DNA from: an uncultured bacterium
Lineage (GTDB): Bacteria > UBP4 > UBA4092
NCBI GenBank assembly: GCA_963768165.1
Contig: CAVYHJ010000002.1
Location: 128,676 to 192,675 of the forward strand
DNA: 64,000 nucleotides
Reading direction: 5' to 3'
Both the position numbers and the translations under genes were made by a program. The notes under the pieces were generated by a model. The model did not search any database and had not been told where the DNA came from. It saw only the letters and a program-made list of their open reading frames with translations. Each line of letters begins with the position of its first letter. Position 1 is the stretch's first letter. Shown piece by piece: positions 1,302 through 54,910 of the stretch.

Positions 1302-1329
1302 AATGCTTATTTTTCTTTAAGTAACTATT

Positions 1330-1357
1330 GTAGAGACGTAACATGTTACGTCTCTAC
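1330..1357. repeat. Family A perfect 28-bp palindrome, copy 2, in the intergenic gap between the wzx-like and lpxL-like genes.
   Basis: Identical 28-mer to copy 1. Confidence 0.9.
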
Positions 1358-1367
1358 ACGGCTTATT

Positions 1368-2828: not shown

Positions 2829-2892
2829 TCCTTAAAGGCTATAGCAAAATAGATTACAGAATTCCAATTCATCGGCAATCCTATGGAGCCGA

Positions 2893-4953: not shown

Positions 4954-5096
4954 ATTAGTTTTTCTCCAAAAAATGAAATATCATCATACTATAAACAGAG
5001 ACCAAAAAGAAAGACTGTCCTTCCACCTTCGAGATTTAAATAGACAAACTAGCGGAATGACAGCCGGAAACTTTGTCAGTCTGAATGTTTATAATC

Positions 5097-6341: not shown

Positions 6342-6356
6342 GAAAACTTTTAAATT

Positions 6357-11857: not shown

Positions 11858-14800
11858 ATGGCTAGAAAATCCTTAAACAAAGAACAACGACGGTATATCC
11901 GTTTGAATTATAAGTCTATGTCGCTTAGCGACATGAGCAAACAATTAAAATGTGATATTCGGGATATTCAGGACGCACTCCGCGAAATGGAACTGCTCGA
12001 TGAAGAGCCCGTCCATAAAGCATTACCTTTACGCAAAGTCCATAAAATTGATGTCTTGTGGGGAATCCCTTGTTTTCTAATCCCAACCATTGTCTATACA
12101 ATGACCTTATGCCGGACATTGTATGTCGGCGATTCCGGTGAATTCTCCGCGCAGGGCAGTGTCTTGGGAATTGCCCACCCCCCCGGATATCCCATGTGGG
12201 TATTGTTACTGAAATGTGCGGTTACCTTATTTAAATTTTTCCCCCATGAAGCGGGGCGTGGAGCTTTCTTATGCGCCATTGTCGCCGGGCTCTCCACTTT
12301 TTTCCTGTATATCCTGCTATTAAAATTATCCCATTACCGCACGATTGCCATGATGGGTTCATTGCTCTTTGCCTTTTGTTACCATTTCTGGTCGCAAGCC
12401 CTGTTTTCCGAAGTGTTTATTTTAAACGTATTTTTTACCGTAGTCACCATGCTCTTGATGCTCTTGTGGAGCGAAACACAGGAACCCAGATATTTCCTGG
12501 CATTCTATTTCGTCACCGCCATGGCGATGGCCCATCATAACTTATTTTTAGTCATGCCCTTGCTCTATTCCTACTTTATTGTCTGTACTCTATTCCCTCG
12601 ATGGGATGTTAAAAAAGAATTTTATTATCTGTTGATTTACGGGGTGGTTGGAATAGTCATGTATTTTATCTCTATACAACTTGTCAGTCTCATTCTCCCT
12701 TCTATTATTCATGAACCCTGGTCGAATACGGATACTTTTACTACCAAATTCACTCTGGCTTTTTTAACCTTTGTTCCCTATACCCTGGCATTTTACTGGT
12801 GGCATAAACGGGACAAGATTGTAATTTATGCCACTTTGATGTTTATTCTCGGGTTGGGGATGTATCTCTATTTACCCATGCGAATATTAAGTAATCCCAG
12901 TATGAGTTGGGGTAGTCCGCACACAGTCTATGATTTATATAATCATATCTCCCGCCGGCAATACGGGCCTTTAAGTCCCATCCCGCGGGTATGGCCATTT
13001 GGCCAGGAAACTGGAACCAACCCTTTGGGACGATTTTCCATCTTCGGTCCCCCGGACATTGTTAAAGAACAATTCTGCGAATACTGGGTTGATTTCTTCC
13101 GCCAGTTTGGTTCCTATTGGGATCATTATGCACCCGGTTCGGTTTTAGCGCATTTTAATCATCAATTAAAACCCCCGGAAGGATTCCCCCACGGTGGGAA
13201 ATTGGTTCTCATGGGACTCTGGACACTTACCTGGGTGGTCTTGTTATTTTTAGGCATCTGGCGAATTCTCCGGCAGAACGGAAAATATTTTATGTTAACC
13301 CTTATGGCCTTCTTATTCTACGGGCCGGGAATGTTAGCGGTGTTAAATTATCAAACTACCAACCACTCCATGTACATCATCGCACGTTTCCTTATTCCAA
13401 GTTATCTTATAGCCTCCATCTGGATTGCTTTTGGAGCGCAACAGGTCATGGAATGGTTTAAATACGGGTTCCAGATTACGGGATTACCGACTATTCCGGA
13501 TATTCCGTCTACTTCTGACTCCTCATCTCCCAATGGACAGAAGAATATTTTGCCTCCATCTGTTCCTTCCAAGGAATCAAAATATCCCATCGTTCTACGG
13601 TACGCAGGATGCGCCTTGATATTAGCCATGCCGATTGTTCCCTTAAAAATGAACTATTGGCATCAGAATTTAAGCAAAAATCAAGTGGCGTATGATTTTG
13701 GATTAAATATCTTAAATTCTATTACACCATCGAATGCACCGCTGATTACAGCTTCATACACTCCGCCTACTCCACCGGATTCAAAAATATTTATCATCGG
13801 TGACAATCCGACCTTTGCATTAGCTTATCTCTGCTATGTCGAACATAAATTCCCTGCGGATCAAGTGTACGATGAAGGAGAAAATCTATTTGTTATGATC
13901 CATGACTTCGGAAAAGATAAATTTCGTTTTTCGCCGGATGACCATGCCCGATTAAAAGATATTGGCCGGGCACGAGTGACCATGACCTCCACGACCCCTG
14001 TATTTTATATGAGCGTCCAGAATCCCGCTCCTCCGGCAAGCGATCCGGAGCGCTATAAAGATTACCCGAATTATCCTAAAATTCAACAAGTCCCGTCGGG
14101 AATTGTCTACCGCGTCCTGCGGCCTGGGGAACCTTCACCTGACTATGACGCCATTCTTAGCAAGATGATTGATTTGGACCCATTTTTTTATAACATGGCA
14201 ACGGATTATTACACCCGTGAATTGGTCTCCAATTATCATTTCTTGATGGGAAGAGCCTATTATCAGTTGTATCAGCAGTCAACTGACCCAGTAAAAAAGA
14301 AAGATTATCATGATAAAGCCTATTATCAATTCAAGAAAGTCAGCGAAACCGGTTGGGACTTGGATAATATGCACATTAACCTCGCCATGATGTATCGCCA
14401 GGAAAATCGTAATGACGAAGCTATGGAAGAATATAAGATGGCATTAGAGACCCAACCCCGCAAAGCCTTAATCTATTTCCAGATGGCGGATTTATATCGT
14501 GCTTCGGGTAAAACGGATTTGGCGATTGAAAAATTGAAGAAAGGGATTACCCTGGGAATCTATGATACTGATGCCTACGATCCCAGTGCCTACTATATGC
14601 TGGGTTCGTTGGAAATGGAAAAGGCCTCCAAGATTCTCAACAACCGACCCCTCACCGCCCTGACAGACGCCGAACGGACTCAACGGGACAACTTACTCAG
14701 CGATGCCATCAACTATTTAAACACCTGTATCTCTTTGGCTCCAAATTCGGTTCAAGGGTATCAATTTTTGGGAGAAGCCTATTATTTCCGGGGACAGTTT

Positions 14801-15028
14801 GATGATGCCGTGGGAATGTGGCAACATGCGGTTCAACTCAATGATAAATTCTATCCTGCTCTCATGGACCTGTTTTTCTATTATCGGGATCGTGCAAAAA
14901 ATATGCAAAAAGCTCAAGAATATTATACCCGCGCTATGCAAGCCATGGCCGCGTCAGGAGTGAATCCGCAACAAATGATGGGGCAACTACCGCCACAACA
15001 GGCAATACAATCGCCTCCTAAAAAATAA
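11858..15028 (+). CDS. Large integral membrane protein: a DUF2723/TMEM260-like GT-C-fold putative glycosyltransferase with C-terminal TPR repeats.
   Basis: 1056 aa with more than 10 TM helices in the N-terminal half. A conserved YVGDSGEF acidic loop is typical of DUF2723/GT-C. The C-terminal third contains about 6 TPR-like repeats. Confidence 0.55.
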   Translation: MARKSLNKEQRRYIRLNYKSMSLSDMSKQLKCDIRDIQDALREMELLDEEPVHKALPLRKVHKIDVLWGIPCFLIPTIVYTMTLCRTLYVGDSGEFSAQGSVLGIAHPPGYPMWVLLLKCAVTLFKFFPHEAGRGAFLCAIVAGLSTFFLYILLLKLSHYRTIAMMGSLLFAFCYHFWSQALFSEVFILNVFFTVVTMLLMLLWSETQEPRYFLAFYFVTAMAMAHHNLFLVMPLLYSYFIVCTLFPRWDVKKEFYYLLIYGVVGIVMYFISIQLVSLILPSIIHEPWSNTDTFTTKFTLAFLTFVPYTLAFYWWHKRDKIVIYATLMFILGLGMYLYLPMRILSNPSMSWGSPHTVYDLYNHISRRQYGPLSPIPRVWPFGQETGTNPLGRFSIFGPPDIVKEQFCEYWVDFFRQFGSYWDHYAPGSVLAHFNHQLKPPEGFPHGGKLVLMGLWTLTWVVLLFLGIWRILRQNGKYFMLTLMAFLFYGPGMLAVLNYQTTNHSMYIIARFLIPSYLIASIWIAFGAQQVMEWFKYGFQITGLPTIPDIPSTSDSSSPNGQKNILPPSVPSKESKYPIVLRYAGCALILAMPIVPLKMNYWHQNLSKNQVAYDFGLNILNSITPSNAPLITASYTPPTPPDSKIFIIGDNPTFALAYLCYVEHKFPADQVYDEGENLFVMIHDFGKDKFRFSPDDHARLKDIGRARVTMTSTTPVFYMSVQNPAPPASDPERYKDYPNYPKIQQVPSGIVYRVLRPGEPSPDYDAILSKMIDLDPFFYNMATDYYTRELVSNYHFLMGRAYYQLYQQSTDPVKKKDYHDKAYYQFKKVSETGWDLDNMHINLAMMYRQENRNDEAMEEYKMALETQPRKALIYFQMADLYRASGKTDLAIEKLKKGITLGIYDTDAYDPSAYYMLGSLEMEKASKILNNRPLTALTDAERTQRDNLLSDAINYLNTCISLAPNSVQGYQFLGEAYYFRGQFDDAVGMWQHAVQLNDKFYPALMDLFFYYRDRAKNMQKAQEYYTRAMQAMAASGVNPQQMMGQLPPQQAIQSPPKK

Positions 15029-15849: not shown

Positions 15850-16821
15850 CTAATCGGAAAGCTGGTCTGCCCGAAGGACACGCACTGTCCCGCTTATAGC
15901 CCCGTCGGCGTGGTCAAGTTCTTTTCCCAAAACATCCTTTCCTTTATAGGTCATGAAAGTATTGGGAATATCCCCCCACGTATTATTAAAGCGAAAATAA
16001 ATCTGTGATACCGGTATTTTCCCTGTAGCTTGGAATTCCAGGGTACCCAGTTTCCCCGATAAAATCTTCCTTTCGTTTTGTGCTTTCAACCGGATAAAGA
16101 GTTCTCCCGTGGAGATATGGCTGAAAGAGGTCACTTGGGTCCAACCGGAGAATGGAGCGGATTCCAATTCAAATGGCACTCCTTCTGTTGCGCCCGATAA
16201 GGTCACGGCTTTAGGATTATATTGAATCCAGAGTCCCAAATCATCCGCATTAACCCCCTTGGGGTTATCCAGTACGATGCTTAATTGAAACGGTTTCGTC
16301 GGACTTACACGGCTCGATAAAGGCGCGAAATATAAAACCGAATTGGCCGTCGGTACTCCGTTGAGAAAATCTGGGGGAGTAGAGAGTTTAGAAGCACCCG
16401 TCGTGGAAGTGCTATTAGCAACAATAAATTCTCGATTCACTGTGACGTCAAAATCTTTTTCCTCCCCATCCCGCACTCTTTTCACATTAAAATTAATTCC
16501 TGTTCCTTCCGGCCCTCGAATTTTATTTACCACATCACTGGATTGCATCTCAGATACCGGTTGCCCATTTATTTGGGTAATCAAATCTCCTGCCTGGAGT
16601 CCTGCTTTTTCCGCCGGACTCCCGGGAATTACGGAGACTACATGGGCATTTCCTTCCTGAACAGTTATTTGCAATCCGACACCACCGAATCCATTTTGAT
16701 CTTCGCCATCCGCTATCGCATGGGTAAAGAAACATGGATTTGCCACAACACAGAACACAATACTTAGTTTCCAAATATATCTCATGAGCATAAATACTAA
16801 CCTTGTATGATTCTCTATCAA
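15850..16821 (-). CDS. Secreted PDZ domain protein.
   Basis: Signal peptide and the PDZ signature VVSVIPGSPAEKAGLQAGDLITQINGQPV. The C-terminal beta-rich domain is unknown. Confidence 0.6.
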   Translation of the reverse strand: MIENHTRLVFMLMRYIWKLSIVFCVVANPCFFTHAIADGEDQNGFGGVGLQITVQEGNAHVVSVIPGSPAEKAGLQAGDLITQINGQPVSEMQSSDVVNKIRGPEGTGINFNVKRVRDGEEKDFDVTVNREFIVANSTSTTGASKLSTPPDFLNGVPTANSVLYFAPLSSRVSPTKPFQLSIVLDNPKGVNADDLGLWIQYNPKAVTLSGATEGVPFELESAPFSGWTQVTSFSHISTGELFIRLKAQNERKILSGKLGTLEFQATGKIPVSQIYFRFNNTWGDIPNTFMTYKGKDVLGKELDHADGAISGTVRVLRADQLSD

Positions 16822-16905: not shown

Positions 16906-17622
16906 ATGTGTAATGATATGCCGACTTTAGTCATTGTTCCAACATATAACGAAAAACAAAATATCATCAATCTGATGGAGAAAATTTTAAACCTTTCTCC
17001 GGAGATAGATGTTTTGGTGGTGGATGATAATTCCCCTGACGGGACGGGTCAATTGCTAGATGATGCCATAAAGTCTTATTCACGCCTCCATATTCTGCAT
17101 CGTGCCGCCAAGTTGGGTTTGGGAACGGCGTACAAAGCGGGTTTTCAATATGCCTTACAAAACAATTATGACCGGGCTATTACGATGGATGCAGATTTTT
17201 CTCATAACCCTAAATATATCCCAGCGTTGATTGAGAATAATAATACGTATCATGTCTCCATTGGTTCCCGCTATGTTCCCAGTGGTGGTACGGTGAATTG
17301 GGGGGCCCATCGCAAACTCGTCAGTTCCACGGCGAATTTCCTGGCACGATTTTTACTGGGTCTAAAAACCCACGATTGTACTGCCGGTTTCCGCTGTTAT
17401 CGCAAGGAAGTCCTTCAGACAATTGACCTGGACAATATCAAATCCAACGGCTATTCTTTTCTGGTCGAAATGCTCTTTGGTTGTGTCGGGCACGGTTTTA
17501 CTGTTGGAGAAATTCCCATTATATTCGAAAACCGTGTGGCGGGAAAATCCAAAATATCCAAGAAAGAAATTTTTACCGCCATCCTTACCTTATTCCGCCT
17601 CTCTTTTCGGAAAGCCAAATAA
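16906..17622 (+). CDS. GT2 polyprenol-phosphate glycosyltransferase (dolichol-phosphate mannosyltransferase / Ppm1-like).
   Basis: LVIVPTYNE...VVDDNSPDGT...DADFSH (DXD and related motifs) is typical of the Dpm1/ArnC family. It lacks a C-terminal TM. Confidence 0.8.
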   Translation: MCNDMPTLVIVPTYNEKQNIINLMEKILNLSPEIDVLVVDDNSPDGTGQLLDDAIKSYSRLHILHRAAKLGLGTAYKAGFQYALQNNYDRAITMDADFSHNPKYIPALIENNNTYHVSIGSRYVPSGGTVNWGAHRKLVSSTANFLARFLLGLKTHDCTAGFRCYRKEVLQTIDLDNIKSNGYSFLVEMLFGCVGHGFTVGEIPIIFENRVAGKSKISKKEIFTAILTLFRLSFRKAK

Positions 17623-17625
17623 TTT

Positions 17626-19116
17626 ATGAAACTTCCCAAGACATTTTCGTTAGCTGTTTTCTTTTTTTACTTTACTATTTTCACTTTCTTCATGTCCGGT
17701 CATTTGTATTCCCCGGATGAAGAAATTATGTACCGAACCACCGAATCCATCGCTCATTTCCACGGGTTCGCTATTCAACCCATGACTTCGCAAGGCGATA
17801 GGTTCACCGACATCGGCAAGGACGGAAAATACTACGGACATTACGGTTTAGGGCAATCCCTTCTTGCCGTACCGTTATACTATATCGGGACATTGATTTC
17901 TAAAATTCTCCCTAGTGAATGGAACTCGGTGTTTCGAACCAATACCATTCAATATCATCCCATGACTTGGAATGAGAACGTCCGTCGACTCGCCGTCTCA
18001 CGTTTTGGTCAATTCACCACGGCGCTCACCTGTCTGCTCTTATTGCATATCGGTTTATCATTAGGTTATTCTCTACGAAATTCCTTTTTTCTTTCCTTTA
18101 TCTATGGTCTTGCCACCATTGCGTTTCCTTTTTCCAAAACCTTTTATTCTGAGCCAACGACAACTCTTTTGCTTCTCCTGGCATTTTATTGTTTGATTCG
18201 ATATCGCACATCCCATCGGAATAGTCTGCTCGTCTGGACAGGCGCTCTGGCAGGCTACGCCCTTTTAACCCGCATGGATACCATCATCACCCTCCCCATT
18301 TTTCTGATTTATCTACTGCGGACTCACTCTGAAAAGTCAAAATCTACAATCTACAATCTACAATCTACAATTTCCTTCCTTCTCCCTTTTGCCTTTTTCT
18401 GTCTACTCGCCGGTTTATTTAACTATGTCCGCTTCGGCTCTTTCACCCACACCGGCTATGAATCGGAAGGGCTAACCTTCTCCTATCCTTTTCTCGACGG
18501 TCTCTACGGGTTACTCATGAGCGCGGGTAAGAGTATTTTCATTTATTCCCCACCCATACTCTTATTCTTTCCTGCGATTAAGAAATTCTGGCAGACCCAT
18601 AAAGAAGAAGCCATTTTCTGCTGTGGTATCCCCGTTATATACCTTCTCTTTTATTCCAAATGGGAATCCTGGGCGGGTGGTTGGACCTGGGGAGCGCGTC
18701 ACGTATTTCAAATCCACGCCTTCTTGCTAATCCCTGTATTGGCTTTGTTGGAAGACTACTTTAAAAAACCATCCAAGATATTTTGGGCAACCATCGCATT
18801 TATTATAGGACTGGGTATTTTTGTCCAAGTACCGGGGATTCTCGTCAGTTTCATGGATTACAATTTCTGGTTTCTACAGCACAAGGAACTCTATTACACC
18901 CTCTATTTCCCGATTCACTCCTCCCTCGCCGGTCACTGGCAGATTCTGACACAGGATACCGTAGACTTATTTTTCTATCGTCTTGTGATCTCCGATTTGC
19001 CGATTTTCGCCCGCTTGTTTTTCCTACTCCCTCTTTTTGTATTTTTTATGACAGGATATTTCATCCTTAAACAGATTCAATGTAATATTCCACTTGCATT
19101 TGACAAATTCAAATAA
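17626..19116 (+). CDS. GT-C fold membrane glycosyltransferase (PMT/ArnT-like). It forms an operon with the upstream Dpm1-like gene.
   Basis: 496 aa with about 11 TM helices and an N-terminal acidic loop SPDEE characteristic of GT-C. A 3-bp gap after the GT2 gene suggests translational coupling. Confidence 0.5.
   Translation: MKLPKTFSLAVFFFYFTIFTFFMSGHLYSPDEEIMYRTTESIAHFHGFAIQPMTSQGDRFTDIGKDGKYYGHYGLGQSLLAVPLYYIGTLISKILPSEWNSVFRTNTIQYHPMTWNENVRRLAVSRFGQFTTALTCLLLLHIGLSLGYSLRNSFFLSFIYGLATIAFPFSKTFYSEPTTTLLLLLAFYCLIRYRTSHRNSLLVWTGALAGYALLTRMDTIITLPIFLIYLLRTHSEKSKSTIYNLQSTISFLLPFAFFCLLAGLFNYVRFGSFTHTGYESEGLTFSYPFLDGLYGLLMSAGKSIFIYSPPILLFFPAIKKFWQTHKEEAIFCCGIPVIYLLFYSKWESWAGGWTWGARHVFQIHAFLLIPVLALLEDYFKKPSKIFWATIAFIIGLGIFVQVPGILVSFMDYNFWFLQHKELYYTLYFPIHSSLAGHWQILTQDTVDLFFYRLVISDLPIFARLFFLLPLFVFFMTGYFILKQIQCNIPLAFDKFK
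18341..18368 (+). repeat. Heptanucleotide tandem repeat (AATCTAC)x4 inside the GT-C glycosyltransferase CDS.
   Basis: Four perfect 7-bp units, read directly, encoding KSTIYNLQSTI. The unit length is not a multiple of 3, so copy-number change would shift the frame. Confidence 0.85.
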
Positions 19117-19120
19117 ATCC

Positions 19121-19237
19121 TATATAGATGTACCAATTAAAACTCGTGTACACTCATACAATAATTCTCTCCAAAAGGTAAATAATATTCCATTACCATT
19201 GGTATATACCTAGGATTTATATGGTTCGTCTATAGAA
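19121..19237. repeat. Copy A of a direct repeat of about 115-140 bp upstream of the cysteine peptidase gene. It is bounded by TCTATAGA-like palindromes.
   Basis: It matches 19398-19536 in blocks (ACCAATTAAAACT.GTG, CTCAT.CAATAATT.TCTCCAAAA.G, TATATACC.AGGATTTATATGGTT.GTCTATAGA). Confidence 0.7.
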
Positions 19238-19397
19238 GTTATACGATTGGGGTAACATTATTGTGTAACTCCAAATAAACAAAAGTGCTGTATAAAGCAT
19301 TGATTTTGTCATGTTTATATTTTTGTATTTGTTCTATCCATTTTGTTTTCAGTAATCTATAAGAAATCCGATAAATTGGGTATGCCTATTGCGGTAT

Positions 19398-19536
19398 ATC
19401 TATAGATGAACCAATTAAAACTTGTGGATGCTCATGCAATAATTTTTCTCCAAAAAGAGAAAAATAAACTATAGATTTCATTGGAGACAATTATTTGTTA
19501 GTATATACCAAGGATTTATATGGTTTGTCTATAGAT
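19398..19536. repeat. Copy B of the upstream direct repeat. It contains an internal insertion of about 25 bp relative to copy A.
   Basis: See copy A. Confidence 0.7.
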
Positions 19537-19589
19537 TCTAATTATTAATATGAAATTGTAAAGCGAAAACTAAATAAAGGGGACATACC

Positions 19590-22403
19590 ATGAGAGACTT
19601 TCTCTACATGGTAGAGAAAGCACAACAAGATAAAAGTAGTCCTCTTAAAATATCATTTTCCCTTCCGCTAATAATTATTCCCAATATTCAGTATATTAGC
19701 ATCCCCATTTCTTTCTCTTTTTATCTCTTATCATCAATCTCTTCAATTATGGGCTGGTGCAGAAAATTAATGATGATAATTTTTAGTTTGTTACTGGTAA
19801 CTCAAGCCAAGACAACTACTAGTGAACCAATCCCCCAACGCGCACCGTTAAATCCCGAATTTATAAAATACCAAGAAGATGTTGCCAAAGGGATTCTCCA
19901 TCCACAATATACGGCGGATGGGCATTATCTAGGTTATATTCCGTCTCCCGTAGATTTATTTTATCTTAAAGGACAAAAGATATTTCAAAATCTCGTTGTG
20001 CCAATGCTCTCATTTCCTTCAACTTACGATCTCCGTACTTATGGAAAAGTATCACCCGTGGAAGCTCAGGAATGTGGGGATTGTTGGATATATGCAACCT
20101 ACGGTTCCTTGGAATCCAACGAGTTAACTGCCGATAAGGCAATTTTCTCCGAAGAACACCTTGATGCTTTCAATGGATTTGATAACGGATGTTGCAATGG
20201 TGGAAATTTTTCGATAACCCAGGCTTATTTGGCGCGATGGAGTGGACCCGTATATGAATCGGATGACCCATACATAAGTTGTAATTCCCCATCAGACCTG
20301 TCATCCTTACCGGCTCGAAAACATGTCCAGGAAGTTGATTGGATTCCTCAAAGAAGTAATTCATTAGACAATGATAATATAAAACTAGCGCTTATGAATT
20401 ATGGAGCGGTGGCCTGTTGTTTTGGGTGGGATAATGCTTATTACAATTCAACGACCTATGCCTATTATTGCGATACGACTGCCGGTTTGGCCGGCCATTG
20501 TGTAACACTCGTGGGATGGGATGATAACTATTCAAGCACTAATTTTGTAACTCCTCCCCCGGGCAATGGTGCATTCCTTATTAAAAACAGTTGGAGTACC
20601 GGTTGGGGCGATAATGGATTCTTCCATATATCCTATTATGACGTAAATGTTGGAGGCTTTACCCTTTTTCGTATGGCGGAGAGTACTACTAATTTTAGTA
20701 ATATTTATCAATATGATCCCTTGGGCCAAACAGCCGGGTATGGTTATGGTTCCTTTACTGGATGGTTTGCTAATATTTTTACAGCGGTTGGTACTGAAAA
20801 GATAACGGCTGTAAGCTTCTATGTGGCTGAACCCAATTCGACTTATACTGTTGCCGTTTATCTGGATCCTACTTCCGGCCCTATCAATAATTCCGGTCCT
20901 GTACTCACAAACTCCAGTACGATTTCCAATCCGGGTTATCAAACAATTAATTTAAGCTCATCTGTATCAGTGAATTCTAGTCAAAGATTTTCTATTGTTG
21001 TTATGCTCAATACTCCCGGTTATTATTGGCCTATTCCTATAGAATCTCAAGACTCGGGTTATAGCAGCGGCGCTACAGCAACGACAGGACAAAGTTATAT
21101 CAGTTCGAATGGATCAAGTTGGACAGATATGACACTAGCTATGCCGAATGCCAACGTATGTTTAAAAGCTTTTTCGTCTTTTACCGAGATATTTATCAAC
21201 GGGTATCTCTTGGATAGTTCCGGCAATCCCCTCAATGGAAGTTATGCCTATGTGGCGGATTGGTATTCCGGGTTACAGATTATCAATATCAGCAATCCTG
21301 CGTCACCGATTTTAACAGGGTCCTATGATGCTACGCTATCCAGTGCCCATGGTGTCGCGGTCAGCGGGAACTATGCCTATGTGGCAGATTATTCTTCTGG
21401 GTTACAGATTATCAATATCAGCAATCCTGCGTCCCCGACTCTGACAGGGTCCTATGCTACGCCGGACTTAGCTTGGAATGTCACAGTGAGTGGAAACTAT
21501 GCCTATGTGGCGGAGGGAGCGGATGATATTTTTTCTGGGTTACAGATTATCAATATCACCAATCCTGCGTCCCCGACTCTAGCAGGGTCCTATGCTACGC
21601 CAAGCTATGCCTATGGTGTCGCGGTGAGTGGGAACTATGCCTATGTAGCGGATTGGAATTCAGGGTTAGAGATTATTAATATCAGCAATCCTACGTCACC
21701 GACTCTAGCGGGGTCCTATGCTACACCGGGTGCCGTAGGTGTCACGGTAAGTGGTAACTCTGCCTATATGGCAGATTATAATTCCGGGTTACAGATTATT
21801 AATATTAGCAATCCTTCTTCTCCGACTCTAGCAGGGCACTATGCTACACCGAGCGATGCCGAAAGTGTTGCGGTGAGTTCAACCTACGCCTATGTGGCGG
21901 AGGATTCCGGGTTACAGATTATTAATATCAGCAATCCTGCTTCCCCGACTCTGGCAGGGTTCTATACTACGTCGGGTATCTGGGGTTGGGGTGTCGCGGT
22001 GAGTGGGAACAATGCCTATGTCGCCGCTGGAAATTTAGAGATTATTAATATCAGCACTGCTTCTTTACCCACTCTGGTCGGTTCCTATGCTACGGGCTAT
22101 GCCGAAAGTGTTGCGGTGAGTGTAGTCACCGCGAGAATCACCATGAGTTTGAGTGGAACTACCTCAGGATCAACCAATGCCGATTCCAATGGATATTACC
22201 AGTTTACCAATTTATCTCTTGGAGGGAATTATACCGTGACTCCCGGCGAAACTCATTATACGTTCAGTCCACCATACCAGACTTACAATTCATTAACTTC
22301 CTACCAGTCTAATCAGAACTTTACAGGAACTATTAGTTTGCCCGCAATCAAAGATTGGATGTTATATTCGACAGAATCTGACTATATGCGTCATAGGTTT
22401 TAG
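19590..22403 (+). CDS. Secreted papain-family (C1A) cysteine peptidase with 8 LVIVD repeats and a C-terminal Cna-B/carboxypeptidase-regulatory-like domain.
   Basis: Catalytic motifs QECGDCWIYA (Cys), HCVTLVGWDD (His) and NSWSTGWGDNGFF (Asn). There are eight repeats of about 40 aa (YAYVAD..SGLQIINISNPASPTL.GSYAT). The signal peptide starts at the internal Met 19749, so the true start may be 19749 rather than 19590, although 19590 has the AAAGGGGA RBS. The C-terminal tail reads KDWMLYSTESDYMRHRF. Confidence 0.8.
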   Translation: MRDFLYMVEKAQQDKSSPLKISFSLPLIIIPNIQYISIPISFSFYLLSSISSIMGWCRKLMMIIFSLLLVTQAKTTTSEPIPQRAPLNPEFIKYQEDVAKGILHPQYTADGHYLGYIPSPVDLFYLKGQKIFQNLVVPMLSFPSTYDLRTYGKVSPVEAQECGDCWIYATYGSLESNELTADKAIFSEEHLDAFNGFDNGCCNGGNFSITQAYLARWSGPVYESDDPYISCNSPSDLSSLPARKHVQEVDWIPQRSNSLDNDNIKLALMNYGAVACCFGWDNAYYNSTTYAYYCDTTAGLAGHCVTLVGWDDNYSSTNFVTPPPGNGAFLIKNSWSTGWGDNGFFHISYYDVNVGGFTLFRMAESTTNFSNIYQYDPLGQTAGYGYGSFTGWFANIFTAVGTEKITAVSFYVAEPNSTYTVAVYLDPTSGPINNSGPVLTNSSTISNPGYQTINLSSSVSVNSSQRFSIVVMLNTPGYYWPIPIESQDSGYSSGATATTGQSYISSNGSSWTDMTLAMPNANVCLKAFSSFTEIFINGYLLDSSGNPLNGSYAYVADWYSGLQIINISNPASPILTGSYDATLSSAHGVAVSGNYAYVADYSSGLQIINISNPASPTLTGSYATPDLAWNVTVSGNYAYVAEGADDIFSGLQIINITNPASPTLAGSYATPSYAYGVAVSGNYAYVADWNSGLEIINISNPTSPTLAGSYATPGAVGVTVSGNSAYMADYNSGLQIINISNPSSPTLAGHYATPSDAESVAVSSTYAYVAEDSGLQIINISNPASPTLAGFYTTSGIWGWGVAVSGNNAYVAAGNLEIINISTASLPTLVGSYATGYAESVAVSVVTARITMSLSGTTSGSTNADSNGYYQFTNLSLGGNYTVTPGETHYTFSPPYQTYNSLTSYQSNQNFTGTISLPAIKDWMLYSTESDYMRHRF
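21243..22125 (+). repeat. Intragenic tandem DNA repeats of about 120 bp that encode the LVIVD repeats.
   Basis: GGGTTACAGATTATCAATATCAGCAATCCTGCGTC(A/C)CCGACTCT recurs at high identity about 8 times. Confidence 0.8.
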
Positions 22404-22601
22404 TCCCTTGGAAATTTAATAACCTTTGGCCTTACCTGATACGATTGGATCATGAATGGGGAAAGTACCTACGGAGTAATAAAATGGTTTCCAAACGCAC
22501 CCTTGTCTTATTATCAATTTATTTTCTGATATAGAATTCTTTAAGTTGAATTTTTTACTATTCTATGACATATTTCTATTCAACTGAAAGGTGTTTTATT
22601 A

Positions 22602-23408
22602 ATGAAGAAATGTCCATATTGCTTTAGCGAAATAGATGAAAGAGCTATTCTTTGCCCAAATTGCCGAAAGAAGGTAGGTGCTATGGGAAAAGACGGAATA
22701 GCAACAAAACCTAAGGGATGTTGGATAGCATTACTTGTTATAGCAATTGTTTTAATTGTTTTCACCGCTTTTGTAGTATTAATTATCTTGTTTAACAGAG
22801 TAGTATCTTCTAGTAGTTCTACAACTACTTCCATATCAAAACCTTCAAAAGAACTGACTCCAGAGCAAAAAGCAATTGCAAGTAAATTCCAAATTACTGG
22901 TCGTTACAATACTTTTGGTCGTAGTGGTGATGACGAATTAGCATTATTAATGCCGAAGAACAGTTCAAAAGAAGATTTGAAATCATTGATCCTTACCTTA
23001 AGACAAGTCCGGCAGGATAATAATTTCATTAAATTTGGAATCCCACCTACAACTCCAGAAGGTCATTTCGATGAAAGTGCACCTATGTTTCGTAATTTCC
23101 ATAAATTATATGGTAATTATGCACTAATTGTAATCTATGTATTTACTGATCCTGAATGGGCAACTAGTGATAATTTGAGAAAATTTGATTCACCTACTGA
23201 TTCAGAATTTGAAGATAAACTTTACCACCGAAATTTTATCCCAGAATTTTCTCAACATGTGAAAGCATTTTATTGGTGGCAGGCATACCCGTATGAATGT
23301 GAAATAGGTACTTTGGGTTTCAAGAGCAATATATCAGAATTCAATGCCGATAAAGACCAGGGAGCCAATTACGAGGCACTTTTTAATTACAGAGAGAAAG
23401 GTAAATAA
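22602..23408 (+). CDS. Hypothetical membrane-anchored protein with an N-terminal zinc ribbon (CPYC...CPNC), one TM helix, a Ser/Thr linker and a C-terminal domain of about 180 aa with no recognised family.
   Basis: ORF with a GAAAGGTG RBS. It lies in an AT-rich (about 33% GC) block. Confidence 0.5.
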   Translation: MKKCPYCFSEIDERAILCPNCRKKVGAMGKDGIATKPKGCWIALLVIAIVLIVFTAFVVLIILFNRVVSSSSSTTTSISKPSKELTPEQKAIASKFQITGRYNTFGRSGDDELALLMPKNSSKEDLKSLILTLRQVRQDNNFIKFGIPPTTPEGHFDESAPMFRNFHKLYGNYALIVIYVFTDPEWATSDNLRKFDSPTDSEFEDKLYHRNFIPEFSQHVKAFYWWQAYPYECEIGTLGFKSNISEFNADKDQGANYEALFNYREKGK

Positions 23409-23549
23409 CTTTTTTGAAGAATATATTTCGATCTGAGAGCTCAAATATAGCTCAAGATGGATTATTTATGGTTATAAAACAAATGAAGTATCAATGGAAA
23501 AGTGGGAGAAAAAGTGGTTTTGCCATCGTTGCGGAGAGGTGTTTGATTT

Positions 23550-24293
23550 ATGATTGATCAACATGAAATATTTACAAAGTTTCTAAAAGATCATCTTAAT
23601 TCCTCCATTTTTTTAGACGAAATTTTGCCTAAGAAAGAAGAGAAGGCTGATTTCCTCTTATACAATAAACAAATAATTTCTGAACTTAAGGAATTACAAA
23701 AGGATCATACTAGCAAAATTATTAGTTTTTCAAAAAGATATTCAAGTGAAAATAATATTACTCCACGGCAAATACAATTAAATCCCATAGAGTATCGAAA
23801 ATTTTTAAAGTTAGCCAATGAACGATTAACGCGGAAATTAACGCATACATTATTTCATGATATTAATAAGGCGAACACGCAGATACAAAGTACAAGGGAG
23901 TATTTGAAAAATGATCCACGATACTCAAATATTTATAATATACCGGGAATGGTTATTATTATAAATAGTTCTGACAATGCTCTTTTGGCAAAAATAGCAT
24001 TACAAGCATTAATCAGAAAACTTGGTTTTTCGTCATCTAGGAAGAAATTAATTTGTAGTAATATCAAGGTATGTTTTTATATATCATTATGCTTTGAACC
24101 CATTACTCTTGATGGGAACCAAATGCCGTCAGTTGTTATAATTAATAGAGTATTTAATAATGAACACCAATTAAGCAGATCCAATTTAGATTTTATTAAA
24201 CACTTAAGGGCTTTGTGGATTATGAAATTTGTTAAGTCAAAGAGTTTTAGAACACCTCCAAGTACAAATATTGATGGGTGTGCTATACAATAA
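23550..24293 (+). CDS. Hypothetical protein (247 aa) with no recognised family, in the same AT-rich block.
   Basis: ORF only. The low GC suggests horizontal acquisition. Confidence 0.4.
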   Translation: MIDQHEIFTKFLKDHLNSSIFLDEILPKKEEKADFLLYNKQIISELKELQKDHTSKIISFSKRYSSENNITPRQIQLNPIEYRKFLKLANERLTRKLTHTLFHDINKANTQIQSTREYLKNDPRYSNIYNIPGMVIIINSSDNALLAKIALQALIRKLGFSSSRKKLICSNIKVCFYISLCFEPITLDGNQMPSVVIINRVFNNEHQLSRSNLDFIKHLRALWIMKFVKSKSFRTPPSTNIDGCAIQ

Positions 24294-24406
24294 AATAAAA
24301 AATATGTCCCGATATGAGAATCGGGAATAGATGTGGAAGAGGTTCCCGACGTCACAAAATAATTCTTCTACAAATGCAGAATTACTCCCCTTGGCTGAAA
24401 TCCGCC

Positions 24407-24430
24407 AGCTTTCTGCGACCGTAGAAAGTT
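24407..24430. promoter_or_regulatory. Imperfect operator-like palindrome AGCTTTCTGCGACCGTAGAAAGTT, a member of the AAACTTTCY-N8-RGAAAGTTT motif family.
   Basis: Inverted arms CTTTCT/AGAAAG with an 8-bp spacer. It lies 83 bp upstream of the perfect site. Confidence 0.4.
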
Positions 24431-24456
24431 TATAATACTAATCAACTCAGTCTTAG

Positions 24457-24640
24457 AGAAAACCTTTGACATTTGAGATCACTGAAAAAGTGACTTTCTC
24501 TATCTTTTTAAAAAACTTTCTGCAATTGCAGAAAGTTTATCTCCAATGAAATCAAGTGTTTAGAATAATTGTACGTTCGCACAATTATTATTTTCCACAT
24601 AAATTGGACTTTTTCAGAGGTCTCATTTGTCAAAGGTTTT
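24457..24640. repeat. Structured element of about 185 bp bounded by 32-bp imperfect terminal inverted repeats (AAAACCTTTGACATTTGAGATCACTGAAAAAG ... CTTTTTCAGAGGTCTCATTTGTCAAAGGTTTT). The perfect 26-bp palindrome lies inside it.
   Basis: The arms match at about 28/32 positions as reverse complements. MITE-like or long-hairpin architecture. Confidence 0.5.
24513..24538. promoter_or_regulatory. Perfect 26-bp palindrome AAACTTTCTGCAATTGCAGAAAGTTT, a candidate dimeric-regulator operator upstream of the GH-like gene triplet.
   Basis: Exact reverse-complement symmetry. A same-length related site AAACTTTCCACGGTAGCGGAAAGTTT occurs at 42012-42037 upstream of a prepilin gene. Confidence 0.5.
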
Positions 24641-24728
24641 TAGAATGATCTAGTCGAAGAAAATTATCCTCATCTCCACCGACGATTCTTTTCAAATCCC
24701 CTGCCATCCATGCTATACTTTTATAGTC

Positions 24729-25787
24729 ATGATGAGCTGTGCCCAACGACGAGTTATAATTCCTTCCTGTTTTCTCATCGTCCTATTTTTATCCGTCTCC
24801 GGTCATAGCGATTCTTTCACTCCTGTCTGGCAAAAAGGCATGTCTTATGTCCCCTGGAGTTGGAGTATCCTATCCACCACGGATTCAAATTCTTCCATCC
24901 AGATAATGTCTTCTGATTCAATCCAATGGGTCGCCCTGTGCGATTTTTGGTTTCAAGCCAATGGGTCATCCACAACCATCGGTCCGGATGAGTCACGATA
25001 TAGTGCCAGCACCGAATCGATTAAATATGCCATCGATCAAATTCATGCCAATGGAATGAAAGTCATGTTAAAACCTATGGTAGATTTGGATAATGGAGTT
25101 TGGCGCGCGTATATCACACCTTCCAATGATTGGTTTTCCAGTTACTCCGCCTATATCCAGTTTTGGTCAGACCTGGCCACTGAGAAAAATGTGGATATGC
25201 TTTGTATCGGATGTGAATTTAAAGATACCCAATCTTGGGATTCCAGTTGGCGCATGATCGCCGCCACCGCTCGCGCTCATTATTCCGGACCCATTACTTA
25301 TGCTGCCAATCATGACGATTTTAACTATGTCACGTGGTGGGATGCGGTAGATTATATTGGGATTGATGCTTATTTTGCTTTAACCAATACGGATACACCC
25401 ACCCTCGAACAACTCTCCTCCGCATGGGATAACACAGCAAATTTCATTGAATCTTTCCGGAATTCCAACTTTCCTACAGAACAGGTAGTGTTTACAGAAA
25501 TCGGGTATCAAAGCGAGGATGGAACCAATGAAACCCCTTGGAATACGACCGGGGGTGCCGTTGATACCGCCGAACAACAACAGTGTTATGAAGCGTGTTT
25601 TGAAGTCATGACTCAGCGAAATTGGTTTGATGGTATGTATTGGTGGAACTGGGAAACCAGCCCTACTGCCGGTGGACCAAATGATAACGGGTTTACTCCC
25701 CAAAACAAACCTGCGGAAGCTACAGTAAAATTGTGGTATTCCAAAACCATCCCTTTGGTTCCTGTTGATGATTGGTATAAGTATTAG
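24729..25787 (+). CDS. Secreted putative glycoside hydrolase, clan GH-A-like TIM barrel (paralog 1 of 3).
   Basis: Signal peptide. Candidate acid/base Glu in the motif CIGCEF and nucleophile Glu in VFTEIGY. The WRMIAATARAHY motif is conserved across all three tandem paralogs. Assignment to a GH family is an inference. Confidence 0.5.
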   Translation: MMSCAQRRVIIPSCFLIVLFLSVSGHSDSFTPVWQKGMSYVPWSWSILSTTDSNSSIQIMSSDSIQWVALCDFWFQANGSSTTIGPDESRYSASTESIKYAIDQIHANGMKVMLKPMVDLDNGVWRAYITPSNDWFSSYSAYIQFWSDLATEKNVDMLCIGCEFKDTQSWDSSWRMIAATARAHYSGPITYAANHDDFNYVTWWDAVDYIGIDAYFALTNTDTPTLEQLSSAWDNTANFIESFRNSNFPTEQVVFTEIGYQSEDGTNETPWNTTGGAVDTAEQQQCYEACFEVMTQRNWFDGMYWWNWETSPTAGGPNDNGFTPQNKPAEATVKLWYSKTIPLVPVDDWYKY

Positions 25788-25864
25788 AAAACCAAACACC
25801 GAGATATATCCTTTATCGTAATTTCCTATTCCCTTTTGTTCCTGTTATAATAATTTCCGCAGTT

Positions 25865-26905
25865 ATGAAATCAGCCGCGCGTAACATTACTCTCATCTCC
25901 ATTCTTTTAGTAATCCTTTTTATATCCAGTTCCAGCCAAGCCACATCTTTTCAACCTGTTTGGCAAAAAGGGGTATCCTACGTTGCCTACCGCTGGGCAA
26001 TGCTCACAACAACAACTTCAGATTCTTCGATTCAAATGATGGCATCCGATTCAGTCAATTGGGTTGCCTTGTGTATCAGTTGGATACAGGATAATGAAAC
26101 CACCACCATTAAATTTCCCGATGATAATAATTTACAAGCACAAACTAAAGCAATCAAATGTGCCGTCGACCGATTCCATGCCAAACATATTAATGTCATG
26201 TTAAAACCCATGATTAACTTGCGAAACCACAAATGGCGTGCTGCTATTGAACCATCGAATGCCTGGTTCTCCAGTTATTCTTCCTACATTCAGTTTTGGT
26301 CAAAACTGGCAACCCAGCAACATGCCGAAGCGCTGTGTATCGGTTGTGAATTCAGAAACACCCAGCCCTGGGATTCTAGTTGGCGGATGATTGCGGCGAC
26401 TGCTCGTGCCCATTATAAAGGACCCCTAACCTATGCGCCGAATTGGGATGACTATACCACCGTCAAGTGGTGGGATGCCGTGGATTATATCGGCATTGAT
26501 GCCTACTTTCCTTTGACGACAACCGTCCATCCAACGCTTTCCGAATTGTCTTCCGGATGGGCCCTTCAAGCGGATAATATTGAATCGTGGCGTAATGCCA
26601 ATTACCCTACCCGGCCCGTCATCTTCACTGAAATTGGATATTGCAGCGCCGACAGCACCAACATAACCCCGTGGGAAGGGCGGCTGGGTGACACCAACCC
26701 CAATATACAACGCGATTGTTACGATGCCTGTCTGGAAGTCATGACGCAAAGAAAATGGTTCTACGGAATCTATTGGTGGAGTTGGGAAATTAATCCAAAC
26801 GCCGGGGGAATACAAGATCACGGGTTCTCCCCGCAAAATAAACCGGCGGAAACTGTATTGAAGACTTGGTATTCCAAATCTTTACCTTTGACGAACATAA
26901 AATAA
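25865..26905 (+). CDS. Secreted putative GH-A-like glycoside hydrolase (paralog 2 of 3).
   Basis: About 55-60% identical by eye to paralog 1, with the same GCEF and FTEIGY motifs. Confidence 0.5.
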   Translation: MKSAARNITLISILLVILFISSSSQATSFQPVWQKGVSYVAYRWAMLTTTTSDSSIQMMASDSVNWVALCISWIQDNETTTIKFPDDNNLQAQTKAIKCAVDRFHAKHINVMLKPMINLRNHKWRAAIEPSNAWFSSYSSYIQFWSKLATQQHAEALCIGCEFRNTQPWDSSWRMIAATARAHYKGPLTYAPNWDDYTTVKWWDAVDYIGIDAYFPLTTTVHPTLSELSSGWALQADNIESWRNANYPTRPVIFTEIGYCSADSTNITPWEGRLGDTNPNIQRDCYDACLEVMTQRKWFYGIYWWSWEINPNAGGIQDHGFSPQNKPAETVLKTWYSKSLPLTNIK

Positions 26906-26974
26906 TTTTTTATTCTATTTTAGGAATCATCACCATTCATTCACATTACAAAACAACAAAGGGGACAATTTTTT

Positions 26975-28048
26975 ATGACGAATAAATACTTTAGATACGC
27001 CTGTGAACTTATCATACTGTTCTCATTTTTTGTCGGAACATACCCGCATGGACAAGCCGCTTCTTCAAATCCTGTTTTCCAAAAAGGGGTCTCTTACATC
27101 GGTTGGAAATGGGACGAGTTAACCTCTGCTGAATCCAATGGCGCTATCCAGCAAATGGCGGATGACTCCGTGAAATGGGTCGCGTTATGTGACTTTTGGT
27201 TTCAAGATGGTGCTAATGCCGTCACGATTTATTCGGATTCAACGAGACATAGTACCAGTACACCATCCCTTAAATATGCCATCCGCCAACTTCACGCACA
27301 CGGTCTTAAAGTCATGTTGAAACCTATGGTTGATTTAACCACCGGGTGGTGGCGCGCATCCATTCAGCCGTCTAATGAATGGTTTTCAAGTTATTCTTCT
27401 TATATCCAATTTTGGTCTGAGTTTTCAAAAGAAAATAACGTGGATATGTTATGCCTGGGTTGTGAATATAAACGTACTCAGTCTTGGGATTCCAGTTGGC
27501 GAATGATTGCAGCAACTGCCCGGTCTCATTTTAAAGGACCCCTCACTTATGCAGCCAACTGGGATGATTACACTACAGTCACTTGGTGGGATACTGTGGA
27601 TTATATCGGCATTGATGCATATTTCCCGTTATCCACCACCGAAAATCTAACTTTATCCGACTTGTCAGCATCTTGGTCTGCGAAAGCTGACACGATTGAA
27701 TCCTGGTTATACTCTTATTATTCCACCAAACCGGTCATCTTTACGGAGATCGGTTACCAAAATCGGAAGAACTCCTATATACGTCCGGCTTCTTATAGGT
27801 CGAGAAATGCAGTGGTCGACAATACCATTCAACAAAACTGTTACCAGGCCAGTTTTGATGTCTTGACGAAACGTCCCTGGTTTTCTGGTTTTTATTGGTG
27901 GCAGTGGGATACCAGTTCCACTTCCGGCGGACCTGATACCGTTTCTTTTACTCCTCAAAATAAACCGGCAGAAACAACTCTACGGGCATGGTATTCCAAG
28001 ACTCTTCCCCTGACTCAGAATACCCTAAAAACCAAGAATTCCAAATAA
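26975..28048 (+). CDS. Secreted putative GH-A-like glycoside hydrolase (paralog 3 of 3).
   Basis: Same conserved motifs (LGCEY, FTEIGY, WRMIAATARSHF). Confidence 0.5.
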   Translation: MTNKYFRYACELIILFSFFVGTYPHGQAASSNPVFQKGVSYIGWKWDELTSAESNGAIQQMADDSVKWVALCDFWFQDGANAVTIYSDSTRHSTSTPSLKYAIRQLHAHGLKVMLKPMVDLTTGWWRASIQPSNEWFSSYSSYIQFWSEFSKENNVDMLCLGCEYKRTQSWDSSWRMIAATARSHFKGPLTYAANWDDYTTVTWWDTVDYIGIDAYFPLSTTENLTLSDLSASWSAKADTIESWLYSYYSTKPVIFTEIGYQNRKNSYIRPASYRSRNAVVDNTIQQNCYQASFDVLTKRPWFSGFYWWQWDTSSTSGGPDTVSFTPQNKPAETTLRAWYSKTLPLTQNTLKTKNSK

Positions 28049-54865: not shown

Positions 54866-54910
54866 CCAACTCCGCTTCATCTCCGTTTCTCCTCCGTTTC
54901 AAGTACGCTT

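Follow-up and report, generated by a model that had tools for sequence, protein, structure and literature searches.

The perfect heptanucleotide array in the window, by which we mean the whole 64-kb stretch of DNA analyzed, is best explained as a young, lineage-specific microsatellite that arose by replication slippage in a length-tolerant cytoplasmic loop of a predicted GT-C glycosyltransferase, and not as a switch shaped by selection. We put the probability of this reading at roughly 0.6. The tract is a candidate phase-variation site, not a demonstrated one, and we see no sign that selection has shaped it or kept it as an ON/OFF switch. The features concerned are listed below, with positions counted from the first base of the window.

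15850-16821, minus strand: PDZ-domain protein, divergently transcribed (Pfam; tblastn synteny)
16906-17622, plus strand: GT2 polyprenyl-phosphate-sugar synthase-like protein of 238 aa with a DPMS/Dpm1-like catalytic domain (Pfam; PDB match)
17626-19116, plus strand: predicted GT-C-fold membrane glycosyltransferase of 496 aa (Pfam PMT_2; AlphaFold2; Foldseek; conservation)
18313-18387, plus strand: loop region, codons L230-P254, between two transmembrane helices (alignment; loop lengths and charges; AlphaFold2)
18341-18371, plus strand: perfect heptanucleotide array (AATCTAC)x4.4 (Tandem Repeats Finder; raw sequence)

The repeat tract

Tandem Repeats Finder reported an array of period 7 with 4.4 copies of the unit AATCTAC and 100% matches, in agreement with the raw sequence. 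The preliminary description gave 18341-18368 for a perfect 7-bp x4 array, which are the four full units; the bases AAT, part of a fifth, carry the perfect periodicity on to 18371. The array is flanked by CTGAAAAGTCAA and AATTTCCTTCC, and predicted alleles would read CTGAAAAGTCAA(AATCTAC)nAATTTCCTTCC with n = 3, 4 or 5. The longest perfect period-7 tract observed is 31 nt, as against 17 nt in 200 first-order Markov simulations of the window, and the number of tracts of this length expected by chance in 64 kb is ~4e-10 by analytic calculation. Chance origin of the array is excluded. No other perfect simple repeat in the window is notable: beyond the array there are five 8-nt homopolymers. A dispersed repeat family within the window was ruled out, as neither a second tandem copy of AATCTAC nor an Rfam family at gathering score was found there. 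The edges of the array are sharp and degenerate flanking units are absent, which, together with a perfect periodicity beyond chance, fits a recent origin by slippage.

The array encodes residues 239-249 (KSTIYNLQSTI). Because 7 = 1 mod 3, the unit gives the cyclic peptide NLQSTIY in whichever frame it is read. The array can be coding only in its present orientation, since TAG occurs in the reverse strand, GTAGATT.

The GT-C gene and its variable loop

The array was described at the outset as lying within a GT-C glycosyltransferase ORF, and the Pfam PMT_2 assignment of the ORF bears this out. The PF13231 match scores 29.3 bits with a cut-off of 26.1 (E 1.2e-6), which is marginal and above the curated threshold; NCBIfam adds a partial LA_3751/3752 match. 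The AlphaFold2 model has a pLDDT of 95.8 and a pTM of 0.95, and its best Foldseek matches in the PDB are all GT-C enzymes: STT3 (7oci_F, E 1.6e-5), ArnT (5f15), Pmt4 (9i5k), and ALG9 (9s6s), with query-normalised TM-scores of 0.42-0.52. Resemblance to solved structures is at the level of the fold, with no match found at the sequence level, and the protein differs from the ArnT/PMT/STT3-type enzymes in having no large periplasmic domain. The first external loop carries an acidic motif, D31-E32-E33, as part of S29-P30-D31-E32-E33 after helix 1; at least 90% of 68 homologs share D31. On its modelled fold, the ORF is thus a predicted GT-C glycosyltransferase.

The repeat falls in a loop of 23 residues between the invariant anchors L230 and P254. 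In an alignment of 15 homologs, it is in this one stretch that variation in sequence is combined with variation in length (19-37 residues). The loop is rich in K and R and is therefore predicted to be cytoplasmic. AlphaFold2 places helices at 217-237 and 241-270 with a turn at 238-240 (pLDDT 92-96).

Consequences of unit number for the reading frame

The array starts at codon 239 of 496, i.e., at 48% of the ORF. Simulated alleles agree with the earlier claim that gain or loss of one unit shifts the frame and that only changes of three units keep it: alleles with 1, 4, and 7 units are in frame and give 489, 496, and 503 aa, and 2, 3, 5, 6, or 8 units leave a truncated product of 260-287 aa. Slippage by a unit would cut the enzyme after about 6-7 transmembrane helices. 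The residues P309, W349, and R358, which are invariant across 68 homologs, all lie downstream of the repeat, and a change of one unit in either direction truncates the protein before them. In this respect the tract agrees with a phase-variable gene: it lies within the ORF, its unit length is not divisible by three, and the full-length product would be lost upon gain or loss of a unit.

Neighboring genes

The GT2 gene lies upstream of the GT-C gene, the two being separated by 3 nt. Its product has a Pfam Glycos_transf_2 domain (E 1e-31) and no membrane domain, and its best solved relative is the dolichol-monophosphate-mannose synthase of Pyrococcus (5MLZ, E 7e-32), followed by ArnC and GtrB; the 5MLZ match upholds the earlier assignment of a Dpm1-like GT2 next to the GT-C gene. 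By tblastn synteny, the pair is conserved in three relatives (L001-L003) at 51-69% identity, and the PDZ-domain gene adjoins it in 3/3 of them. Conservation of the operon across relatives this distant argues that it is not an accessory island. The GT-C gene is the last of the pair and is followed by 473 bp before the next gene, so a polar effect of truncation is unlikely. The window as a whole is full of envelope and polysaccharide genes.

In the systems ArnC-ArnT, GtrB-GtrC, and Dpm1-PMT, the GT2 enzyme is thought to load a sugar on polyprenyl phosphate, and the GT-C enzyme transfers it outside the membrane. The pair in the window follows the same two-gene logic, and its GT-C protein also has the fold and the acidic motif of the first loop. 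Since the DPMS-like GT2 is adjacent and syntenically conserved, it may supply the GT-C enzyme with its polyprenyl-phosphate sugar. That sugar is probably mannose, as suggested only by the similarity to DPMS and by GH113 neighbors.

Orthologs and variant alleles

The preliminary description proposed looking for the same repeat in orthologs; it was found neither in L001, L002, and L003 (69, 56, and 51% identity) nor in any of the 15 aligned homologs. The MetK of this bacterium has no recorded match above 79% identity, and among named relatives of the GT-C protein the nearest is from candidate phylum UBP4. The organism is represented by one NCBI/ENA assembly and one Logan contig (L004, run ERR11523656). 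The latter is 100% identical to the window over 6432 bp with the tract unbroken and the same copy number; it probably comes from the same sample and is thus not independent evidence. No second strain was found in a protein search, a cluster look-up, a genome scan, or a metagenome scan, and the homolog search returned no high-identity fragments. The ten predicted products of the 1-, 2-, 3-, 5-, 6-, and 7-unit alleles, from both candidate starts, had no exact match among ~15 billion proteins, which says little given that the species is barely sampled.

Arrays of the same unit or size in other bacteria

A scan of metagenomes gave at least 120 contigs with AATCTAC arrays, mostly of 3.4-4.4 copies. 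In many metagenome contigs, AATCTAC forms one arm of hairpin arrays. An AATCTAC array also lies within a GT-C gene of a Kouleothrix-like bacterium, where the copy number is unchanged between contigs that are ~78% identical in DNA, indicating that arrays of this size can be stable despite divergence. A shared insertion site with the array of the window was rejected, as the proteins align weakly and the array positions are not equivalent; the peptide STIYNLQS is common to both because it is forced by the sequence of the unit. Long AATCTAC arrays were also considered as switches of surface genes and set aside: L065 (17 units) is intergenic, L066 (12.7 units) lies in a 53-aa ORF, and L108 (18 units) is at the end of a contig with an unverified open frame. 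None of the three has a link to a glycan gene.

Heptamers are the most abundant long-unit simple sequence repeats (SSRs) in prokaryotes, and four units are reportedly preferred, for which polymerase slippage favoring 7-nt steps has been proposed as the source (PMC4679880, PMC4692102). The GGGNATC repeats of Xanthomonas and Nostoc, the cyanobacterial STRR, and the TAACTGA repeats of Beggiatoaceae resemble the tract in their 7-nt unit, their size of about four units, and their occurrence in free-living bacteria (PMC4692102, PMC4679880). Whereas the array in the window is single, gene-internal, and AT-rich, these repeats are dispersed through each genome in tens to hundreds of copies, most of them between genes and close to gene ends, and their sequence is often G-rich or a single fixed one.

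ON/OFF control by coding heptamers in glycan genes, which the preliminary description invoked as precedent, is well founded in neuO (AAGACTC; PMC13001214) and pglE (CAAACAC; PMC5953494). The neuO gene of the E. coli prophage CUS-3 encodes the K1-capsule O-acetyltransferase and, like the GT-C gene, has a coding heptanucleotide tandem repeat in an enzyme that modifies a surface glycan. Its full-length translation occurs only at certain unit numbers modulo 3, with switching by strand slippage; the tract lies at the 5' end with 3-53 units, most commonly 20, and is polymorphic among genomes (65.6% OFF) and within cultures (PMC13001214). In contrast, the tract in the window has 4 units and is mid-gene, and the two gene families are unrelated. 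In Neisseria, the pilin glycosyltransferase gene pglE likewise belongs to a pathway of protein or surface glycosylation and carries a heptamer SSR in its coding sequence; its phase variation, over 5-34 units, is accepted (PMC5953494). Apart from its higher unit number, it differs in that its repeat is conserved from strain to strain and between species in a host-adapted genus with dozens of other SSR loci, whereas the window has a single tract that no ortholog carries. Another heptamer SSR is that of hmw1A of H. influenzae PittAA, with (AATTTTG)x14 located 3.5 kb inside the ORF (PMC2651432). Its associated frameshift indicates that heptamer tracts deep in a long ORF can have this effect. Unlike the tract in the window, that of hmw1A comprises 14 units, its frameshift was observed, and the phasome of the species is well documented.

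Origin of the tract and competing explanations

Under the slippage reading, replication slippage would have led to a net gain of three units (21 bp, 7 residues), and the gain would have landed in a GT-C loop tolerant of altered length and sequence. The gene is now in frame and presumably active, and would work with the adjacent DPMS-like GT2. Continued slippage could add or remove a unit and truncate the enzyme, and the site may thus be a local frameshift hotspot. We assume that the slippage rate at four units is probably modest. The indel variability of SSRs climbs steeply with tract length, and coding SSRs are suppressed mid-protein, the phase-variable ones being enriched near N-termini (PMC3315296). 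For short heptamer tracts, mutability is unmeasured according to a Neisseria phasome study (PMC5953494). What counts against this explanation is that the path from one to four units by single slips crosses two out-of-frame states, which implies either that slippage recurred and the null intermediates were tolerated or that several units were gained in one rare event. Recurrent slippage is the pattern expected of a switching locus.

These implied past out-of-frame states are part of the case for a genuine slipped-strand phase-variation (contingency) switch, in which variants with 3 or 5 units would be OFF, lack the GT-C-dependent glycan, and revert, as bet-hedging against phages or grazers that recognize the glycan. 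We regard this as doubtful. In favor of a switch are the perfect array, which chance would hardly produce, the loss of the invariant C-terminal residues from the enzyme when one unit is gained or lost, and the precedents of neuO and pglE. The class of surface-glycan transferases and the position at the end of a gene pair, before the 473-bp gap, are typical of contingency loci. The 4.4 perfect units also reach the cut-off of at least 3 units for repeats of 6-9 nt, which is a prediction cut-off and not a measured mutability (PMC5953494, PMC2651432). However, four units is few beside the ranges of pglE and neuO, and the tract is mid-ORF and solitary in 64 kb, where a 5'-proximal position and multiple loci would be typical. 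The operon is conserved, the loop encoded with four units is as long as that of the nearest homolog, the repeat is absent from all orthologs examined, no variant alleles were seen among recorded sequences, and the second assembly crosses the tract with the same unit number. Comparable arrays are conserved in other bacteria, and the OFF state would be a multi-helix membrane fragment of 260-287 aa, wasteful in comparison with 5'-proximal tracts. Of the earlier proposal of a potential switch, the mechanical prerequisites and the cut-off of at least 3 units stand, and the step to an actual switch is unsupported; four units, a mid-gene position, solitary occurrence, and a conserved operon are not typical of evolved contingency loci.

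The loop itself might instead have been the target of selection at the protein level, a gain of seven residues having restored or adjusted cytoplasmic-loop length and helix start, with four units then held by purifying selection; the repeat would be the footprint of an adaptive in-frame expansion and not a switch. With four units, the loop matches the 23 residues of the nearest homolog exactly, a one-unit allele would leave a 16-residue loop, shorter than in all 15 homologs, and AlphaFold2 confidently models the segment as a tight turn and helix start. Yet the span of 19-37 residues among homologs means that the constraint is loose, protein function needs no perfect DNA repeat, and with one genome such selection is inseparable from neutral expansion; we consider it quite unlikely. 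That the tract belongs to a class of four-unit heptamer arrays acting at the nucleic acid level (hairpin pairs, G-quadruplex repeats, or regulatory repeats of the TAACTGA or STRR type) is very improbable, even though arrays of this class preferentially have about four units (PMC4692102) and AATCTAC makes up hairpin arms elsewhere. A hairpin or partner array was rejected: there is no inverted partner within 70 nt (best 9/18, with a partner threshold of at least 16/18) and no predicted structure in the region (fold z = +0.37 vs -9 for paired arrays). Moreover, the unit has no G-tracts, the window holds one perfect array and no second tandem copy of the unit, and that array lies within a gene, away from gene boundaries. 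The chance of an assembly or sequencing artefact is close to negligible. Nothing specific points to one beyond the genome being a metagenome-derived assembly, whereas the separately made Logan assembly of ERR11523656 gives an identical sequence of 6432 bp including the tract, the open frame aligns with conserved residues on both sides and so requires a unit number of 1 mod 3, and the tract of 31 bp is shorter than a read.

Implications

To our knowledge, SSR phase variation of glycan genes is known almost only from host-adapted pathogens. It is unlikely that the tract is a working contingency locus in this uncultured, deeply branching environmental bacterium, stochastically silencing envelope glycosylation by a polyprenyl-phosphate-sugar-dependent GT-C enzyme, for example in escape from phages that use the glycan as receptor. 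If true, this would extend SSR phase variation of glycan genes to a free-living lineage, with an envelope glycosyltransferase turned ON and OFF by a repeat, which is rare outside host-adapted pathogens. Four heptamer units would then be enough to switch, a minimum that is unmeasured according to the Neisseria phasome study (PMC5953494).

Under the preferred reading of a young slippage microsatellite, the present value of the tract is mainly cautionary, as it passes the filter for a "putative phase-variable gene" and yet is short, mid-gene, solitary, and in a conserved operon. Together with arrays of the same size and unit that are unchanged across diverged genomes, a tract of this kind suggests that copy-number cut-offs alone over-call phase variation in environmental genomes.

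The AATCTAC array

Positions 18341-18371 of the window read directly as four AATCTAC units followed by AAT, and Tandem Repeats Finder returned the same 31-nt array (period 7, 4.4 copies, 100% matches), bearing out the perfect 7-bp, four-copy array of the preliminary description. When the whole window was simulated 200 times with a first-order Markov model, perfect period-7 tracts reached at most 17 nt, against the 31 nt observed; calculated analytically, about 4e-10 tracts of 31 nt are expected per window. Counting perfect repeats with units of 1-9 nt over the 64 kb gave only five 8-nt homopolymers besides this array, and no second tandem AATCTAC copy occurs in the window. The array is real and exceptional for the window, having arisen by duplication or slippage and not by chance, and among the many polysaccharide, lipid A and GT-C genes of the window it is the sole tract.

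A cluster of imperfect short tandem repeats lies between genes at 54800-54960. It includes CTCCGTTTCAC x2.9 at 54870-54901 and GTTTAAG x4.4 at 54930-54960 (83% matches), the latter being the window's one further period-7 array of this size.

The GT-C gene and its neighborhood

The ORFs concerned are as follows:

16906-17622, + strand: DPMS-like GT2 ORF, ending 3 nt upstream of the GT-C gene
17626-19116, + strand: GT-C glycosyltransferase ORF of 496 aa, containing the AATCTAC array
28094-28942 and 29063-30475: second GT2 and B12/radical-SAM ORFs, with counterparts in L002 and L003 that are 65% and 69-74% identical

The array lies within a GT-C coding sequence, as had been proposed. The ORF falls in Pfam PMT_2 just over threshold (29.3 bits vs the 26.1 cut-off), and no solved structure was matched at the sequence level. 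An AlphaFold2 model built with 68 homologs is very confident (pLDDT 95.8, pTM 0.95), and its best PDB matches are all GT-C enzymes (STT3, ArnT, Pmt4, ALG9 and EmbB/C). The motif S29-P30-D31-E32-E33 follows the first helix, with D31 kept in at least 90% of the 68 homologs, across which only P309, W349 and R358 are invariant. The NCBI/ENA protein P0001 (474 aa) begins at M23, which leaves out the first transmembrane helix. M1, the start of the 496-aa form, was called in the Logan assembly and agrees with the N-termini of four homologs; residues 5-21 of that form (within 17626-17691) are modeled as a confident helix.

Among solved structures, the upstream GT2 comes closest to the catalytic domain of Pyrococcus dolichol-monophosphate-mannose synthase (5MLZ, E 7e-32), with ArnC and GtrB next. 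Three relatives (contigs L001, L002 and L003; GT-C identity 69, 56 and 51%) share the order PDZ(-)/GT2/GT-C. The 3-nt gap, the 5MLZ match and the retained order uphold the earlier pairing of the GT-C gene with a Dpm1-like synthase, and the pair is part of a conserved operon.

In L002 and L003 the second GT2 and the B12/radical-SAM protein directly follow the GT-C gene, whereas in the window about 9 kb intervenes (segments compared: window 19590-28048, L002 6537-8896, L003 6459-8808). This stretch holds a cysteine protease with LVIVD repeats and a lectin-like domain, two ORFs without a family match and three tandem paralogs of GH113, a beta-mannanase family. L001, the closest relative, has a GH113 homolog right behind its GT-C gene. 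Together with the DPMS-like GT2, the GH113 neighbors hint at a mannose-based glycan.

From the GT-C gene to the gene for the LVIVD/papain-like protease runs a 473-bp spacer (19117-19590). In it a segment is directly duplicated (19123-19236 and 19401-19535, period about 280-300 bp, 86-92% identity), and it also has several inverted repeats. A second, much larger GT-C-type protein (11858-15028, 1056 aa), with a TMEM260-like N-terminal domain and C-terminal TPR repeats, is encoded 2.6 kb upstream of the repeat-bearing GT-C gene, giving two GT-C enzymes in the neighborhood. Wzx-like, Wza-like and lipid A acyltransferase genes occupy 195-7334.

Reading frame and search for alleles

The mechanical part of the phase-variation hypothesis is correct. 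Simulated alleles of 2, 3, 5, 6 and 8 units stop at 260-287 aa and lose P309, W349 and R358, whereas those of 1, 4 and 7 units yield products of 489, 496 and 503 aa; as previously stated, one unit gained or lost breaks the frame and changes of three units keep it. With 473 bp separating the GT-C gene from the start of the next one, polar effects of an OFF state on downstream genes are improbable.

A search of 5.8 billion protein clusters returned one cluster at 90% identity or more to the GT-C protein, with two members, the NCBI/ENA protein and that of a Logan contig from run ERR11523656. Over 6432 bp this contig matches the window at 100% identity, with 4.4 units in both, which rules out an assembly artefact as the source of the array. 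Most likely it came from the same sample through another assembler, and it is not an independent strain. The high-identity fragments expected of OFF alleles were absent from these clusters, and about 15 billion proteins include none of the ten products predicted for 1-, 2-, 3-, 5-, 6- and 7-unit alleles. Metagenome contigs, scanned at the DNA level and with the protein as guide, yielded no additional strain. No sign of switching came from these searches. The lineage is poorly sampled, as nothing else on record exceeds 79% identity to the MetK of the window; among named relatives of the GT-C protein, the nearest is 'bacterium UBP4_UBA6127'.

Heptamer arrays in other contigs

In two papers citing Mrazek et al. 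2007, heptamers rank first in abundance among the long-unit SSRs of prokaryotic genomes, perhaps because polymerase slippage prefers 7-nt steps (PMC4679880, PMC4692102). At least 120 metagenome contigs, with GC of 0.23-0.69, contain an exact (AATCTAC)x3. Among the contigs listed, 101 of 124 AATCTAC arrays are shorter than 4.5 units and only nine round to 6 or more. The longest three there (12.7, 17 and 18 units) show no link to surface or glycan genes: for two of them no convincing gene encloses the array, and the other is at a contig end, in an unverified open frame.

The scanned contigs (L005-L124) hold 69 further perfect heptamer arrays in 619 kb. Variant units (AATCTGC, AATCTGA or AATCTAA) adjoin many arrays, suggesting a wider AATCTRN family. 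Of 195 perfect heptamer arrays in these contigs, 27% have an inverted partner within 70 nt, vs 3 of 120 random control segments, and the partnered arrays fold as long hairpins (z near -9). The window array was rejected as a member of this class: it has no inverted partner (best match 9/18), no predicted structure (z = +0.4), no G-tracts in its unit and no other tandem copy.

L107, a Kouleothrix-like Chloroflexia contig (GC 0.68; PheS 89% identical to 'Kouleothrix sp.'), carries more than 20 arrays of 7-8-nt units at about 4-5 copies, every array with a different unit. Many are paired 10-15 nt apart with reverse-complement units, forming long tandem-unit hairpins (RNA fold z about -9).

Positions of arrays in L107 and of arrays of the same kind
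L107: 3100-3180, 4508-4597, 5025-5105, 7748-7860
L107, continued: 8930-8998, 9471-9535, 12006-12082
L114: 3941-4018; also L026, L040, L048 and L031

Some pairs lie in frame within real genes and others right after stop codons. One in-frame pair adds 36 residues in the B3_4 domain of pheT, with a second pair further along that gene, and another lies in a PMT_2/TMEM260-like GT-C ORF. Our literature search found no description of such paired in-frame arrays. The AATCTAC array of L107 is within this GT-C ORF; homology with the window array was rejected, as the positions are non-homologous and the shared peptide is forced by the unit. The orthologous contig L114 (about 78% DNA identity) has the same arrays and unit numbers, GT-C hairpin included, so coding four-unit heptamer arrays can last unchanged over long divergence.

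Origin of the array

The first base of the array is the second of codon 239, and the encoded peptide is KSTIYNLQSTI. Because 7 = 1 mod 3, any frame of the unit gives one cyclic peptide, NLQSTIY, and the array is codable in one orientation only since the opposite strand contains TAG. In the AlphaFold2 model helix 217-237 is followed by this segment, which makes up a tight turn (238-240) and the initial turns of helix 241-270. The stretch between L230 and P254, both invariant, differs among the 15 closest homologs in sequence and length (19-37 residues) and in them carries 3-6 K+R vs 0-2 D+E, an excess that, by the positive-inside rule, points to a cytoplasmic loop. The window loop has 23 residues, the same length as in the nearest homolog (P0002, on L001), whose DNA lacks the repeat. 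A one-unit allele would give a 16-residue loop, below every homolog, and a seven-unit allele one of 30.

Coding heptamers are established switches of glycan genes, as the preliminary description held. The neuO tract (AAGACTC) has 3-53 units, most commonly 20, is OFF in 65.6% of complete genomes, and variants of 20 to 22 units occur together in a single culture (PMC13001214); pglE (CAAACAC) has 5-34 units (PMC5953494). The prediction cut-off for 6-9-nt units is three or more (PMC5953494; PMC2651432), so the AATCTAC tract would count as 'putatively phase-variable', and a one-unit change truncates the protein before its invariant residues. Against a switch, it has four units, sits at 48% of the ORF and is solitary in the window. 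One survey describes a steep rise of SSR indel variability with tract length, suppression of mid-protein coding SSRs, and N-terminal enrichment in species using phase variation (PMC3315296); a Neisseria study notes that little attention has been given to how repeat number affects switching rates for units longer than pentamers (PMC5953494). Going from one unit to four singly needs out-of-frame intermediates, so that slippage either recurred, null states being tolerated, or gained several units in one rare event. As stepwise gain implies such intermediates, true phase variation keeps some standing but is unlikely, and an adaptive contingency locus, the stronger claim, is more doubtful still. 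Of the proposed switch, the mechanics hold in the frame simulations and by the cut-off, and no evidence of selection as a switch was found.

Loop expansion born of slippage is the most economical account (probability roughly 0.6). The array would represent a recent slippage expansion, by a net three units, in a permissive and putatively cytoplasmic loop of a conserved GT-C enzyme; the tract is in frame today, and it can in principle shift frame.
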